Position numbers and translations under genes: made by a program | Source of the DNA: an uncultured Planctomycetota bacterium | GTDB lineage: Bacteria; Planctomycetota; Planctomycetia; Gemmatales; Gemmataceae | Length of the DNA: 64,000 nucleotides | Assembly: GCA_963849325.1 (NCBI GenBank) | Contig: CAWKHF010000009.1 | Location: 423,439 to 487,438, forward strand | Direction: 5' to 3' | Notes under the pieces: generated by a model | What the model was told of the DNA's origin: nothing | Seen by the model: the letters and a program-made list of their open reading frames with translations, nothing else | Database searches by the model: none | Shown: piece by piece, positions 18,944 to 33,772 of the stretch | Numbering within the stretch: position 1 is the first letter of the stretch | Layout of the letters: every line of letters starts with the position of its first letter

Positions 18944-18981
18944 GCCCCTTTAGCTCAATTGGCAGAGCAACTGACTCTTAA
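18944..18981 (+). repeat. attL: 5' half of tRNA-Lys (38 bp)
   Basis: GCCCCTTTAGCTCAATTGGCAGAGCAACTGACTCTTAA is identical to 33700-33737 and ends at the anticodon loop. Confidence 0.95.
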
Positions 18982-19176
18982 GAAGACCAAATGACTCCAA
19001 GTCAGCAATGACGCACCCGCCGATAAACTCACAAAACGGCTAGAAATACGAGAAAAATAGCAAGATTTTGCAAATCGACCTACAGAAAAACATGCACGCT
19101 TGTTGATGCGTGTGTCAAAAATGTGTCTTTTTCGCCCGTACTTAACGAAAAAGGCATCCATGCCCTTTTCATAAGA

Positions 19177-20364
19177 TCAGACCTCCGGTATCAGCTTCTC
19201 GGCAAACTCAGCAAACTTCTTGCCGCTGTCGATCTTGTCCATGTCGAGGTAGTACCGCCGCGCCGTCTGCGCGTCCATGCCCAGCATCCTCGCCGCTACC
19301 TCAGCCGAAATACCCTCCGCGAATAGCAGCGTGATCGCCCGCTTCCGCAGCATGTGCGACTTGAGCTTCTTCCCGGTCGTCTTCTGGAAAAGACGAAACA
19401 GGCTCCGCACGAACGTAGCGAGCGCTTTCGGCGAAAACACCGTCAACAGCCGACCGACCCGTCTGCCTTGTGCCTCCCGGCATTGCCGGTACTGCTCAGG
19501 AAATCGCTCCCACAGGTACTCTGTGCCCTTCAACTCGTCGAGGGCGCGGTACAGCTTGGGAGGCAACTCAACGCGGCGAAAGTCGCGTGCCTTGAGTTGC
19601 TCTGGGTCAAGATGAATGGCCCCGTTCCGAAGCTGGTCGCTGCGCACCGAGCACAAGTCCATCAAGCGACAGCCCAGTAGGCACTTGGTCTGGAGGTACA
19701 GGATCGGCATCTCCCAGTTCGGGTAACGGTCCTTCACGAACTGGAAGAATTGAAGCAGCACATCCTCATCTGGGGCTTCAGGACGCTTCCGGTCCACCTT
19801 GGCGTAAGCCACCGCCAGCCACGGGTTGTCCTTCACCATCTTGAGTTCCTTGAGCCATTTGCTCCAGATGGCCCGCGTCTGCCGCAGATAGGTGTTGAAA
19901 CTCTGCGTGCTCCGTCTGTAGACCTTGGCGTCTGCGGCCTTGCCACGCTTGAAGCTGCCGCTCAGGTACTCGTCCTTGAAACGCTGGGCCTCATACGGCC
20001 CGATGTCCAGCGGCCCGGTCGTGTCTGGCAAGACGGTTTGGACCACGCGGATCGTCGAGGCGTAGTTGGCGTAGCTGATCGGGCGATTGCCATTCGCCGT
20101 CATGGCCGATTGCAATTTTTGGAGCATCTCGTCCCACGAGATGTGGACGGGCCTCTGGAACTGCATCGGACAGTAGACGCGCTCGACGATCTTGGCCGCT
20201 TCGTTGCGGGCTTCGCCCTGCTCACGCATCCCAGTGCTGATCCGCTCGTAGTCACCCTTCGGCCCGTAGAAGCGGACGAAGTAAAACTTGCCGCGCTTCG
20301 AGAGGGTATAGCCGACCTTTCCGTGGTCAGGGATCTCGAAGAACTCCTTGAACCGCCTACCCAT
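19177..20364 (-). CDS. int: Tyrosine recombinase/integrase
   Basis: N-terminal arm-binding-like YFVRF...RISTG; LLGCRLMDL (R), KSHMLRK (HxxR), LGMD..TARRYY (Y); RBS AAAGGGG before ATG 20364. Confidence 0.9.
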   Translation of the reverse strand: MGRRFKEFFEIPDHGKVGYTLSKRGKFYFVRFYGPKGDYERISTGMREQGEARNEAAKIVERVYCPMQFQRPVHISWDEMLQKLQSAMTANGNRPISYANYASTIRVVQTVLPDTTGPLDIGPYEAQRFKDEYLSGSFKRGKAADAKVYRRSTQSFNTYLRQTRAIWSKWLKELKMVKDNPWLAVAYAKVDRKRPEAPDEDVLLQFFQFVKDRYPNWEMPILYLQTKCLLGCRLMDLCSVRSDQLRNGAIHLDPEQLKARDFRRVELPPKLYRALDELKGTEYLWERFPEQYRQCREAQGRRVGRLLTVFSPKALATFVRSLFRLFQKTTGKKLKSHMLRKRAITLLFAEGISAEVAARMLGMDAQTARRYYLDMDKIDSGKKFAEFAEKLIPEV

Positions 20365-20449
20365 AGGGTCGCCCCTTTCAACAGGGGACGGGTCGGCTAG
20401 AATGCAAGTGCCAAGAGCATCTGGGGCCGACACGCCCCGGTGTTTCTGC

Positions 20450-20487
20450 CCCGCAGCACCGCGCCAACGGTGCTGCGGGTTTTCTTT
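20450..20487 (+). terminator. Intrinsic terminator-like hairpin, antisense to the integrase leader
   Basis: 12-bp stem CCCGCAGCACCG/CGGTGCTGCGGG followed by TTTTCTTT. Confidence 0.65.
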
Positions 20488-20591
20488 CTTGCCGGGGACC
20501 GTCCCCAGCACCGCTGCATCGTAACCTGAACGCGAAGCCGCGTTCAAGGATAGTTGTGCCACAATTATTCTGAATGGTTTAGGAAGAGGGC

Positions 20592-20777
20592 ATGGGTCGG
20601 AAGAAGCTGCCGCCCGGTGTGGGCCGCGAGAACACGCTCCGCATTCGCCTGACGGTGGCCGAGCGTGCCGTTGTGGATCGAGCCGCTCGCCAGAGAGGGT
20701 TCCGCAGCACGTCCGCATGGGCGCGGCAAGAGTTGCTTCGGCTGGCCCGTCGCGCTGGTGCTGGAGAAGGTTCTTGA
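20592..20777 (+). CDS. Small ribbon-helix-helix DNA-binding protein (MobC/DUF1778-like)
   Basis: MGRKKLP...LRIRLTVAER..VDRAA.....STSAWAR; divergent from int; purine-rich RBS. Confidence 0.7.
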   Translation: MGRKKLPPGVGRENTLRIRLTVAERAVVDRAARQRGFRSTSAWARQELLRLARRAGAGEGS

Positions 20778-20946
20778 GACCGCGATGGCGGTGCTGATGG
20801 AAAAGCGAGACGTGCATAGCACAACCCTCTGAACGTACCTTCTACGGCTCAGCCGCGTGGAGGCGGTCCCAAGCGGGTTGTGTAACTCCTAGATTATTTG
20901 GTGTTCTTGGAAAAGGAAAGAGGCTTGGTCGAGGAAAGACTATCCG

Positions 20947-21678
20947 TCACAAGAACGTGACGTGAGGCAAGGTCTTGTGACTTCCCTGTCGCCTGCTGTT
21001 GTCCTGCCCTGCCAGCTTACATATTTCACTCGGCGAACCGGCATGACGAAAAGCCTGCTGGATGGCAACGTATCCCCGTCCGATTTGTTCCCACTTATCC
21101 CGGTTCCATTCTGCGGTCAAGCTGCACGTCATACCGTCTGCCATCGACTTTCTGTGGTCGGGCGCGAAGTACCTCACGAGGTACTGGTGTCCCCTGTCCG
21201 AAAGGGCATAGGCCCAAGCGCCGTCACCCTCGTTGTCGCCCTGAACGACGTACTCGTTGACTTGTCTTCGGTGTCGGAACGTCTCGTCGAGGATCGTCTG
21301 AGGGTGATTAACCCCAAGGTGGATGATCGCCCAGTCGGGAGGCACGTTCGTCATGACGCCCGCGAGGATCTCATTGGCGTTGGCGTTGACAAGGATGTCG
21401 TCTTCAAGCAGAAGGACTGACTTGTAACCCGAGGTCAGGCAATGCTTCCAGCAATTGTAGTGGGTCAGGCCGTTGCCGAGGTCGCCGCGATGCCTCATTT
21501 TGGGATAGTGAGCAAGTTCCTCAATGGCGAAGTCACCACCGTCAACGCCGAAGAACAACGAGACATCCATATTGAGCTTCTTGACCTCTTCTCTGATATG
21601 CCGATGCCTCGACAAAAAGGAAGAGGCTGTGAGGACATAGGCGGCGTCAAAGTACGCATTGAGGCTGTTCGATTTCAT
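20947..21678 (-). CDS. Glycosyltransferase family 25-like
   Basis: AYVL......R, FFGVDG, G..LTHY.CWK, VLLLEDD, P.DW.IIHLG and GAWAYALS. Confidence 0.8.
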   Translation of the reverse strand: MKSNSLNAYFDAAYVLTASSFLSRHRHIREEVKKLNMDVSLFFGVDGGDFAIEELAHYPKMRHRGDLGNGLTHYNCWKHCLTSGYKSVLLLEDDILVNANANEILAGVMTNVPPDWAIIHLGVNHPQTILDETFRHRRQVNEYVVQGDNEGDGAWAYALSDRGHQYLVRYFAPDHRKSMADGMTCSLTAEWNRDKWEQIGRGYVAIQQAFRHAGSPSEICKLAGQDNSRRQGSHKTLPHVTFL

Positions 21679-32790: not shown

Positions 32791-32799
32791 AGTTTGTTC

Positions 32800-32828
32800 T
32801 TGCGCCTTCTCTTGGTCTTTGCTATACT
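32800..32828 (+). promoter_or_regulatory. Sigma70-type promoter, probably giving a leaderless mRNA
   Basis: TTGCGC-17 nt-TATACT with extended TG; ATG 7 nt downstream at 32836. Confidence 0.6.
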
Positions 32829-32835
32829 TTTCACG

Positions 32836-33339
32836 ATGCCATCAGATGCGGTAGGAGAGATAATCGAGTGGGACGGAACGAGGTACTGGCTTCGAAATGA
32901 AGGGTTCCATCGGGAAGACGGTCCTGCCGTCGAGTGGGCTGATGATGGAGGCCGAGAATGGCTTCAAAATGGGGTGCTCCATCGGGAGGACGGTCCTGCC
33001 GTTGAGCGGACTGATGGAAGCCGAGAATGGTATCGAAATGGGCTCCGTCACCGGGATGATGGTCCTGCCGCCGAGTGGGCTGATGGAAGCCGAGAATGGT
33101 ATCGAAACGGGCTCCGTCACCGGGAGGACGGTCCTGCCGTCGAGTTGGCTGATGGAGGCCGAGAATGGTTTCGAGATGGGGCACGTCACCGGGAAGACGG
33201 TCCTGCCGTCGAGTTGGCTGATGGCAGCCGAGATTGGTTTCGAAATGGAGTATTTCATCTGGAGGGTGATCCTGCCATCGGGTTAGCCGACTCTTCTGTT
33301 GATCTTGAGAAATGGGATTGGCGGCTGGAAGGCTTCTGA
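32836..33339 (+). CDS. HREDGPA-repeat protein
   Basis: Five full and one degenerate 23-aa repeats (HREDGPAVEWADGSREWYRNGLR). Confidence 0.8.
   Translation: MPSDAVGEIIEWDGTRYWLRNEGFHREDGPAVEWADDGGREWLQNGVLHREDGPAVERTDGSREWYRNGLRHRDDGPAAEWADGSREWYRNGLRHREDGPAVELADGGREWFRDGARHREDGPAVELADGSRDWFRNGVFHLEGDPAIGLADSSVDLEKWDWRLEGF
32908..33290 (+). repeat. 69-bp coding tandem repeat
   Basis: Units start at 32908, 32980, 33049, 33118, 33187 and 33256 (first unit 72 bp). Confidence 0.9.
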
Positions 33340-33550
33340 AAATGCGGAGGCCCGCCACTGGTTTTCGAAGGTGTTCAGGCGGGCCTTCCGCCCTCTATCC
33401 GGTGTCTGTCAGTCCTTTCTGGGGCCGGATCCGGCTGGAAGAAATGAAAAACGCTGGCCTGCTGGCGTGGGGCTTGCTAGAATGAGGTTAAGCAAGACAA
33501 CCGCGAAACGGCTTGATCTTAAGGAATTGCGGAGGTTCGTCTTAGGGAAT

Positions 33551-33587
33551 GTGTCACTATTGAGCGTGTGTCGCTACCGTGTCACTA
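33551..33587 (+). promoter_or_regulatory. Putative integrase arm-type binding sites
   Basis: GTGTCACTA, GTGTCGCTA, GTGTCACTA at 33551, 33568 and 33579; related TGTGTC pair at 19111 and 19122. Confidence 0.6.
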
Positions 33588-33699
33588 TCCCGAACACGAA
33601 GTCAGCCGTAAAACGTGGCTTTTTGTACACTAACGTAATTCCTTAAGTTTAAGATGGCAACTGATTTACGGCTGAAAAACGCGGTTTTTTGCTTCTTTT

Positions 33700-33772
33700 G
33701 CCCCTTTAGCTCAATTGGCAGAGCAACTGACTCTTAATCAGTGGGTTGTAGGTTCGAGTCCTACAAGGGGCA
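33700..33772 (+). tRNA. tRNA-Lys(CTT); its 5' 38 nt are attR; CCA not encoded
   Basis: Acceptor GCCCCTT/AAGGGGC, anticodon arm CTGA-CTCTTAA-TCAG, T arm GTAGG-TTCGAGT-CCTAC. Confidence 0.97.

Follow-up and report, generated by a model that had tools for sequence, protein, structure and literature searches.

The 64,000-nucleotide stretch of DNA considered here (hereafter the window) is part of contig CAWKHF010000009.1 (positions 423,439 to 487,438) of an uncultured Planctomycetota bacterium of the family Gemmataceae (assembly GCA_963849325.1). It contains a 14.8-kb integrated element at positions 18944..33737, within a tRNA-Lys(CTT) gene. The reading preferred here, at a probability of about one half, is that of a non-autonomous integrative element of phage ancestry, which is to say a cryptic (defective) prophage or a mosaic island. 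Sequence comparison supports a phage origin for part of the element, because structural modules of complete phages show synteny with its cassette of virion-like genes and because this cassette occurs together with a gene for an HREDGPA-repeat protein, a type of which the element has two, in a phage contig from a related host (G441:C18). Under this reading, the left 5.7 kb (cassette genes g6, g5 and LamG, then g3, a glycosyltransferase gene and the integrase gene) would represent the "tail-module end, moron, int/att" portion of a temperate siphophage of about 30–40 kb. The other 9 kb would consist of small phage-type genes (the two HREDGPA genes), of open reading frames (ORFs) lacking relatives (ORFans) and of foreign cargo in the form of a protease/HEPN operon.

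Boundaries and Insertion Site

A direct repeat that is identical at 38 of 38 nucleotides (18944–18981 and 33700–33737) makes up both ends of the element. It equals nucleotides 1–38 of the tRNA-Lys(CTT) gene at 33700–33773, reaching the anticodon loop (ARAGORN; Rfam, 74.6 bits). The two junctions are as follows:

18944..18981, plus strand: attL, the displaced 5′ half (nucleotides 1–38) of tRNA-Lys(CTT), with its native upstream region retained; the DNA 5′ of it can be aligned with the leader that precedes the tRNA in sister genomes G009 and G006
33700..33773, plus strand: attR and the intact tRNA-Lys(CTT), of which the first 38 nucleotides and the upstream region are element-derived (ARAGORN, Rfam, junction alignment)

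The GC content of the element (0.51–0.60) lies below that of both flanks (about 0.63–0.69). The gene on its left (17012–18880) has a homolog in all ten other genomes of the genus, and the loci of eight of these were scanned for tRNA genes. In G009, an intact tRNA-Lys(CTT) stands directly after the left-flank-gene homolog (87% amino acid identity). Synteny breaks down within the genus to the right of the tRNA, and support for the empty site is therefore confined to the left side. An earlier note on this DNA, made from its letters alone, had described an element of 14.8 kb with intact att ends, a description borne out by the perfect repeat, the drop in GC and the G009 site. The island is real and precisely bounded. 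It also has the hallmarks by which Islander recognizes islands integrated into tRNA genes (tDNAs): an integrase inside the interval, and an intact tDNA and a displaced cognate fragment in the same orientation, with the 5′ fragment upstream.

The second sister genome, G006, has only the 38 nucleotides of the tRNA followed by GAAG after the left-flank gene, as at attL (contig G006:C407; locus L011, 3461–3502). This junction could be another insertion or a scar at the identical point; its contig stops about 4 kb past the truncated tRNA, and no integrase is found on that stretch. Elsewhere in G006, an integrase homolog interrupted by three in-frame TGA codons adjoins an intact tRNA-Lys(CTT) (short contig G006:C374; locus L048, 3808–5164); these may be traces of a related element, or a scar, at this site. 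In soil run X1, the only run that contains the sequence, the element is present solely as contigs of 151–232 nucleotides at a depth of 2–4, six pieces having at least 99% identity, and at such low depth no joints are visible.

The Virion Cassette and Its Phage Relatives

The cassette opens a minus-strand operon in the order g6, g5, LamG protein, g3, glycosyltransferase. These genes and the two HREDGPA genes are listed here:

24210..24692, minus strand: g6, first cassette gene, 152–160 residues, alpha/beta protein (AlphaFold2 model, predicted local distance difference test [pLDDT] 95)
23704..24201, minus strand: g5, second cassette gene, 165 residues, predicted jelly-roll beta-sandwich (AlphaFold2 pLDDT 74)
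22115..23704, minus strand: LamG/ConA-like protein, third cassette gene, 529 residues (PF13385, E 3.7e-24; PHROG virion structural and tail-fiber matches)
21768..22103, minus strand: g3, 111 residues, no match in four libraries, gene-like codon-position GC
20947..21774, minus strand: glycosyltransferase of family GT25, moron-like (PF01755, E 5.9e-11, above cut-off; phrog_2835 glucosyltransferase, E 3.6e-6)
27719..28207, plus strand: g11, HREDGPA-repeat protein with 3–4 repeats (PF20530 DUF6745, E 7e-7; 49% identity to an ORF of the phage contig G441:C18)
32794..33339, plus strand: g20, HREDGPA-repeat protein, 4.9 tandem copies of a 69-nucleotide unit

The g6 family is small, with 28 unnamed proteins (the window's own included) among 5.8 billion, and g6 has no match in 50,697 GenBank phage records. 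Its closest metagenomic homologs have 50–68% identity to it. Its relatives were found in the viral database IMG/VR, a check that had been proposed earlier, at 21 loci (28–49% identity) on contigs of 4–81 kb. At ten of the 21 loci, an ORF listing gives the full order of a g6-like gene (138–162 residues), a gene for 143–185 residues and a gene for 278–892 residues; of the others, three are truncated where the contig stops, in one the first and second genes have changed places and in one they are apparently fused. Locus L040 (9565–11775) combines g6-like and LamG-like parts in a single ORF of 736 residues, which suggests a fused form of the cassette. A LamG homolog lies downstream of the g6 relative at six of the 21 loci (tblastn), and the second cassette gene of locus L021 is weakly homologous to g5 (E 1e-5).

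Six loci were annotated with PHROGs and Pfam. The cassette is co-directional with its neighbors in every one of them, and in four (L021, L022, L032 and L034) it is placed among structural genes. In the podovirus-like L022, which also has portal and major capsid protein genes, it is found between tail-fiber/virion proteins and ejection proteins; in L034 between TerL and portal; and in L032 it has the major capsid protein ahead of it and a tail fiber behind it. In L021 (IMGVR_UViG_3300037422_000387), it follows the tape measure, a J-like protein and two large proteins and occupies the very end of the prophage, adjoining host genes. The cassette of L026 comes after primase and methylase genes and is followed by genes without family, and in L023 its neighbors are uninformative.

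A search of 266 other genomes of the order with a g6 profile gave good matches in two and weak ones in a third. One of the good matches is on G441:C18, a contig of 35,091 nucleotides from the same bacterial family with a complete siphophage-type layout and a GC content (0.47–0.60) close to that of the element. Its order is glucosyltransferase, ParB-like protein, TerL, protease–major capsid protein fusion, decoration protein, major tail protein, tape measure and three further genes, then the cassette, which consists of a g6-like gene (32% identity), a g5-like gene (E 2e-4) and a gene for a 437-residue protein. On the other strand after the cassette come a helicase, the HREDGPA ORF that resembles g11, SSB, Sak4 and RecE. 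Two of the element's gene families, g6 and HREDGPA, which are unrelated to each other, thus meet in an ordinary-sized phage contig of a related host. The contig (1–35091; loci L072 and L073) could stem from a prophage or from a phage whose contig was binned with the host.

G441:C18 and L021 share with the element a cassette of g6, g5 and a large protein at the distal end of a tail module, to which G441:C18 adds HREDGPA and glycosyltransferase genes. They differ from it in that g6 identity is 32–36%, g5 and LamG similarity is marginal, the integrase and the cargo genes are not shared, and the glycosyltransferase of G441:C18 is unrelated. A tblastx comparison of the whole element with 23 phage loci found nothing convincing beyond the cassette and HREDGPA, and no other element gene has a counterpart at any of these loci. 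Late-gene homologs are arranged in the element as they are in complete phages, judged from the ten viral loci and from G441:C18. The virion-like operon named in the earlier note is upheld by the LamG match and by this synteny with phage structural modules. Gene context makes a virion-like character of the cassette well supported, and its role would lie among fiber, adaptor and decoration protein.

For g6, Foldseek against the PDB found nothing below E 1.7, and the best VIA-align match reached Z 4.9 over 66 residues; in BFVD it matches only phage proteins that are uncharacterized (best E 3.1e-3), and a "tail fiber assembly-like" protein follows at E 1.1. The best VIA-align matches of g5 are CBM6 (Z 8.0), PBSX XepA (Z 7.5), a tail-tip domain of lambda J (Z 7.1) and phage cement proteins (Z 6.5–6.7), and such middling scores indicate a common fold only. 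The cassette is of use as a conserved and uncharacterized set of three virion genes found across phages with differing gene orders, one of which encodes a small, confidently modeled protein (g6) without a solved-structure match.

The genes had also been called large-phage-type, which is not supported for the cassette: its relatives are on viral contigs of 4–81 kb and on the siphophage-like contig of 35 kb. LamG and HREDGPA, both generic domains, are the only parts of the element that also match phages of 182–642 kb. For g20, tblastn matches are to Celeribacter phage P12053L (38.9 kb), which is the best HREDGPA match, to Agrobacterium phage Atu_ph07 (490 kb) and to an uncultured phage of 642 kb. 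By sequence similarity, the relatives are ordinary-sized phages and not jumbo phages. The presence of two HREDGPA-repeat proteins had been recognized before and is confirmed by g11 and g20.

Gene Inventory and Missing Functions

All 22 ORFs called in the element were searched against Pfam, PHROGs, PADLOC and NCBIfam, and codon-position GC backs most of them. The longest encodes 529 residues, the integrase reading frame aside, and about 12 match no family; the earlier note had spoken of several small ORFans. No capsid, portal, terminase, tail-tube, lysis, primase/helicase, Rep or relaxase family was matched by any of the 22 ORFs in the four libraries, which agrees with the previous failure to recognize packaging, primase/helicase or relaxase genes. 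Similarly, no conjugation or mobilization gene was recognized among them, and library searches of the element ORFs returned no match for helper-hijacking genes (small terminase, capsid-size or packaging redirection). A ribbon-helix-helix (RHH) regulator had been claimed; none of 21 ORFs matched an RHH or helix-turn-helix (HTH) family at E ≤ 5, and that claim is not confirmed. As in cryptic prophages, recognizable essential head, packaging, tail-tube, lysis and replication genes are missing, with about 12 ORFans left without assignment. Such an element would be unable to replicate or to build particles alone.

The Integrase and Apparent Replacement of the tRNA 5′ Half

The integrase and the sites near it are as follows:

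19177..20367, minus strand: tyrosine integrase, 396 residues (phrog_1, E 1.3e-22; PF00589, 24.2 bits, under the cut-off of 27.1)
19095..19153, minus strand: two terminator-like hairpins just past the integrase stop (by consensus scan only)
33550..33590, plus strand: three close GTGTC(A/G)CTA-like direct repeats, candidate integrase arm sites (read by eye; a lead only)

The reading frame of the integrase is open up to 20817. The R, HxxR and Y positions are conserved between the enzyme and five homologs (27–33% identity), and these, with the phrog_1 match, bear out the int gene noted earlier. The His of the "LGH" box varies throughout the integrase clade, so its absence from this enzyme is no defect, and the integrase is apparently intact. 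A strong 12-bp GC-rich hairpin is present at 20421–20479, in the 580-nucleotide gap between the glycosyltransferase gene and the integrase start, and because of it the integrase may not share a transcript with the cassette. The candidate arm-site 8-mer TGTGTCRC is not enriched, with two matches across the window against five expected by chance.

The junctions suggest how integration may proceed. The integrase would recombine attP, which carries a copy of nucleotides 1–38 of tRNA-Lys(CTT), with the chromosomal gene by a crossover at the anticodon loop. The original 5′ half would be displaced to attL while the element supplies a new 5′ half and upstream region, so that the tRNA at attR would stay whole. 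Since it is the tRNA 5′ half that is duplicated, attP must carry such a half, and the DNA upstream of the attR tRNA must be element-derived. The genome has three tRNA-Lys(CTT) genes, and expression of the attR copy therefore need not be essential. Excision and renewed integration of the element are probably still possible.

A second case was found in genome G011, where a 6.2-kb island on contig G011:C66 is bounded by a perfect 39-nucleotide repeat of the 5′ half of tRNA-Arg(TCG) (locus L044, 9401–9439 and 15625–15663). This island encodes an integrase of the same clade and an N6/N4 DNA methylase. Replacement of the 5′ half and upstream region of the target tRNA, seen twice, looks like a property of this integrase clade. 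According to part of the literature on integration sites, targeting of the 5′ side of tRNA genes is the less frequent direction (PMC6563490). Islander tRNA islands likewise have an integrase, an intact tDNA and a displaced fragment, with the 5′ piece upstream, and the Islander filters permit a displaced 5′ fragment upstream of an intact tDNA (PMC4383910); what sets the present element apart is displacement of the 5′ half. A clade of integrases that displaces tRNA 5′ halves in this bacterial family is a useful by-product. Targeting in this direction requires that the element bring the promoter of the tRNA.

Search for Relatives, a Parent Prophage or a Helper

No element protein has a paralog elsewhere in the 8.16-Mb assembly of the same genome at E 1e-4. 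A local BLAST search with the integrase gave eight matches in five of 40 related genomes (27–33% identity). The 16–20 kb around six of the eight matches (four of the five genomes) contain no second such element; the contig with the G003 match is only 3.7 kb long and falls outside this comparison. Pattern scans of the genome and metagenome contig collections found no close integrase relative. Elements of about 15 kb with the same integrase, for which the earlier note had suggested a search, were not found in the own genome, around these integrase matches of the relatives or in the collection scans. The recurrence that marks a family of satellites is thus not seen, the integrase alone being shared, with five of the 40 relatives. 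The earlier note had stated that its reading would fall if the closest relatives were full-length prophages inserted at this position. The 40 relatives and the integrase scans of genomes and metagenomes yielded no complete prophage that has the integrase or occupies the site.

Elsewhere in the same genome, contig C6 carries a phage head module at 34072–38881, with matches to Terminase_6N (TerL), Phage_portal and Phage_capsid, and contig C12 has a second capsid match (332347–333066). The module on C6 indicates at least one other prophage-like region in the assembly. A helper in the own genome is conceivable, but nothing links it to the element.

Origin of the Element

The closest analog is e14, a cryptic prophage of Escherichia coli of about 15 kb that is integrated at icd and carries lit and mcrA. 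Both are small integrated remnants with an integrase, tail-fiber-type genes and defense-type cargo, and without head, packaging or replication genes. It serves as a precedent, its retained tail-fiber genes having an anti-phage effect (PMC12529663). They differ in that there is no sequence similarity between them, in that the present element lies in a tRNA gene and has no invertase, and in that its deletion history is a presumed one. As a defective phage-derived island, the element would be ordinary, either a defective prophage or a tRNA island. The earlier note had offered "an internally deleted large prophage" as one of two possibilities. Of this, phage ancestry is supported for part of the element, "large" is not (relatives of 25–81 kb or smaller), and the deletion is inferred. 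The retained cassette could have no function, could mask a receptor or could supply tail parts to a related phage.

Several points weigh against a defective prophage. No full-length prophage with this integrase or at this site was found, so the deletion is a presumed one. Where the surroundings of the distant integrase relatives could be annotated (two of four examined with Pfam), these are non-phage contexts, so the backbone may never have been phage. The similarity of the cassette to known phages is low, at 28–49% identity for g6 and marginal for g5 and LamG. Intact cassette ORFs and a perfect att repeat fit recent acquisition and, equally, an element still in use. Finally, the dozen or so ORFs without family might hide a replication or hijacking function.

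The integrase contexts are also the main argument for a doubtful but serious rival, in which the element is a generic tRNA-targeting island whose backbone was never phage and which captured the tail-end cassette and the HREDGPA genes by recombination, beside other cargo. No phage structural family was seen in any of the four annotated contexts. One relative (G011:C24) adjoins a type IV coupling protein, a ParB-HTH protein and an SNF2 helicase, another is the integrase of the 6.2-kb methylase island of G011:C66, and two of the four contexts gave no informative match. The protease/HEPN operon, which has no viral relatives, would suit such an island as well. Capture does not readily account for the order of cassette, moron, integrase and att, which mirrors the end of a temperate phage, or for the meeting of the unrelated g6 and HREDGPA families in one phage contig, and no conjugation or mobilization gene is recognized in the element.

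A true satellite, which a helper siphophage would replicate and package while the element adds its own distal tail or decoration cassette, is unlikely. The earlier note had proposed a new kind of satellite, and nothing specific supports it: no second element was found and no replication, regulatory or hijacking gene is recognized. P4-like satellites, phage-inducible chromosomal islands (PICIs), capsid-forming PICIs (cf-PICIs) and PICI-like elements (PLEs) are comparable in size and likewise combine an integrase with an incomplete set of virion genes. The features by which they are generally known (primase or replicase, packaging-redirection and capsid-remodeling genes, a recurrent family) were not found for the present element, and searches of the 40 relatives, of 266 further genomes of the order (g6 and g14 profiles) and of the contig collections turned up no similar element. 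In favor of a satellite, the element has a satellite-like size, both the integrase and the att sites are intact, the likewise intact structural cassette comes with a divergent upstream region of its own, and the genome offers a possible helper in the head module of C6 (34–39 kb) and the capsid match of C12; the lack of any paralog of an element protein elsewhere in the genome (E 1e-4) leaves that head module without a link to the element. The accounts of cf-PICIs and of Streptomyces satellites, in the parts drawn on here, concern own capsids or encapsidation functions, and supply of tail genes is not described there. It is quite improbable that a first "tail-donor" satellite has been met here, one that would travel inside helper siphophage particles and retarget them by replacing or extending the distal tail cassette of the helper. 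If true, donation of tail parts would be a new way for a satellite to exploit its helper.

A domesticated defense function, in which the LamG and jelly-roll proteins would mask a receptor or disturb tail assembly of incoming phages and would have been kept together with the protease/HEPN operon, is very unlikely; it overlaps the two rivals just described. The case is purely one of analogy. E. coli e14 keeps tail-fiber genes, and one inverted form, StfE2, blocks adsorption of T2 (PMC12529663); systems that interfere with tail assembly are reported to be carried by prophages and PICIs (PMC11364771). The neighboring operon looks defense-like. By eye, no signal peptide or membrane anchor is evident in the LamG and g5 translations, and PADLOC has no family for any cassette gene.

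The Protease/HEPN Operon

Five genes form an operon on the minus strand in the right half of the element:

28804–32306, minus strand: operon in the order g18, g17, g16, protease, g14, with a promoter-like site at 32383–32412
31806..32306, minus strand: g18, first operon gene, 166 residues
30375..31809, minus strand: g16 and g17, paralogs (37% identity) with a CSIC...CGH Cys/His motif
29454..30302, minus strand: trypsin-like serine protease, 268–282 residues (PADLOC LmuA, E 6.9e-8, residues 40–123; Trypsin, E 0.011, below cut-off)
28804..29403, minus strand: g14, last operon gene, HEPN-motif protein, 195–199 residues

The g14 family comprises 40 unnamed metagenomic homologs besides the window's own protein; the closest of them (71–83% identity) lie on contigs of 9–68 kb. 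In 25 aligned homologs, the motif H-x-R-N-x-x-G-x-H is invariant (H92, R94, G98 and H100; Rx5H). The signature of HEPN proteins is an Rx4-6H motif with a polar residue following the R, and by sequence the g14 motif fits it. No member of the family was found in the 266 other genomes of the order, in the genome contig collection or in IMG/VR, while a metagenome scan gave two contigs of about 1 kb. Pfam has no named family for g14, and the ESM Atlas returned unnamed clusters only for g14 and g16. Relatives of the g16 family occur in three of 400 other genomes of the phylum and have an added Cys-rich C-terminal tail, which we take to resemble the SEC-C motif. The protease has one other homolog in 5.8 billion proteins, and a sequence search of the PDB found nothing below E 0.2 for it.

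The protease/HEPN module of the earlier note is thus retained, in view of the weak Trypsin match, the match of the protease N-terminus to LmuA and the invariant Rx5H motif. Judged by its genes, the operon is not typical of phages and is probably defense or toxin-like cargo. The absence of matches to the g14 family in IMG/VR, the order and the genome collection, together with a protease that has a single homolog, fits foreign cargo. A resemblance to Lamassu is limited: the N-terminus of the protease matches PADLOC LmuA over 84 residues only, and neither an SMC-type partner nor an LmuB ATPase stands beside it. The sole LmuB match (E 0.0021) is on the putative coiled coil of g10, 2 kb away and in another operon. 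An operon of a protease, two Cys/His paralogs and a HEPN-motif protein, for which neither the viral collection nor the 266 further genomes of this order yielded relatives, is useful as a candidate defense or toxin system.

Remaining Genes and Neighboring DNA

The other genes of the element are in its middle block and at its right end:

24939..25613, plus strand: g7 and g8, two small ORFs (85 and 89 residues) divergent from the cassette, no family match
25813..27315, minus strand: g10 (283 residues) then g9 (201 residues), weak matches to phrog_1930 (E 9e-4) and LmuB (E 0.0021)
27987–28286, minus strand: g12, overlapped by the tail of g11
Middle block: g13
Right end: g19
Right end, beside g19 and g20: a doubtful ORF

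A by-eye reading of the translation of g10 suggests a coiled coil and a hydrophobic C-terminus. One copy of a 40-nucleotide direct repeat (75% alike) follows each of g7 and g8, at 25226–25265 and 25588–25627. Outside the element, 5–9 kb to its left, another low-GC stretch (0.52–0.60 against about 0.66) at 10001–14000 of the window is maybe a foreign segment.

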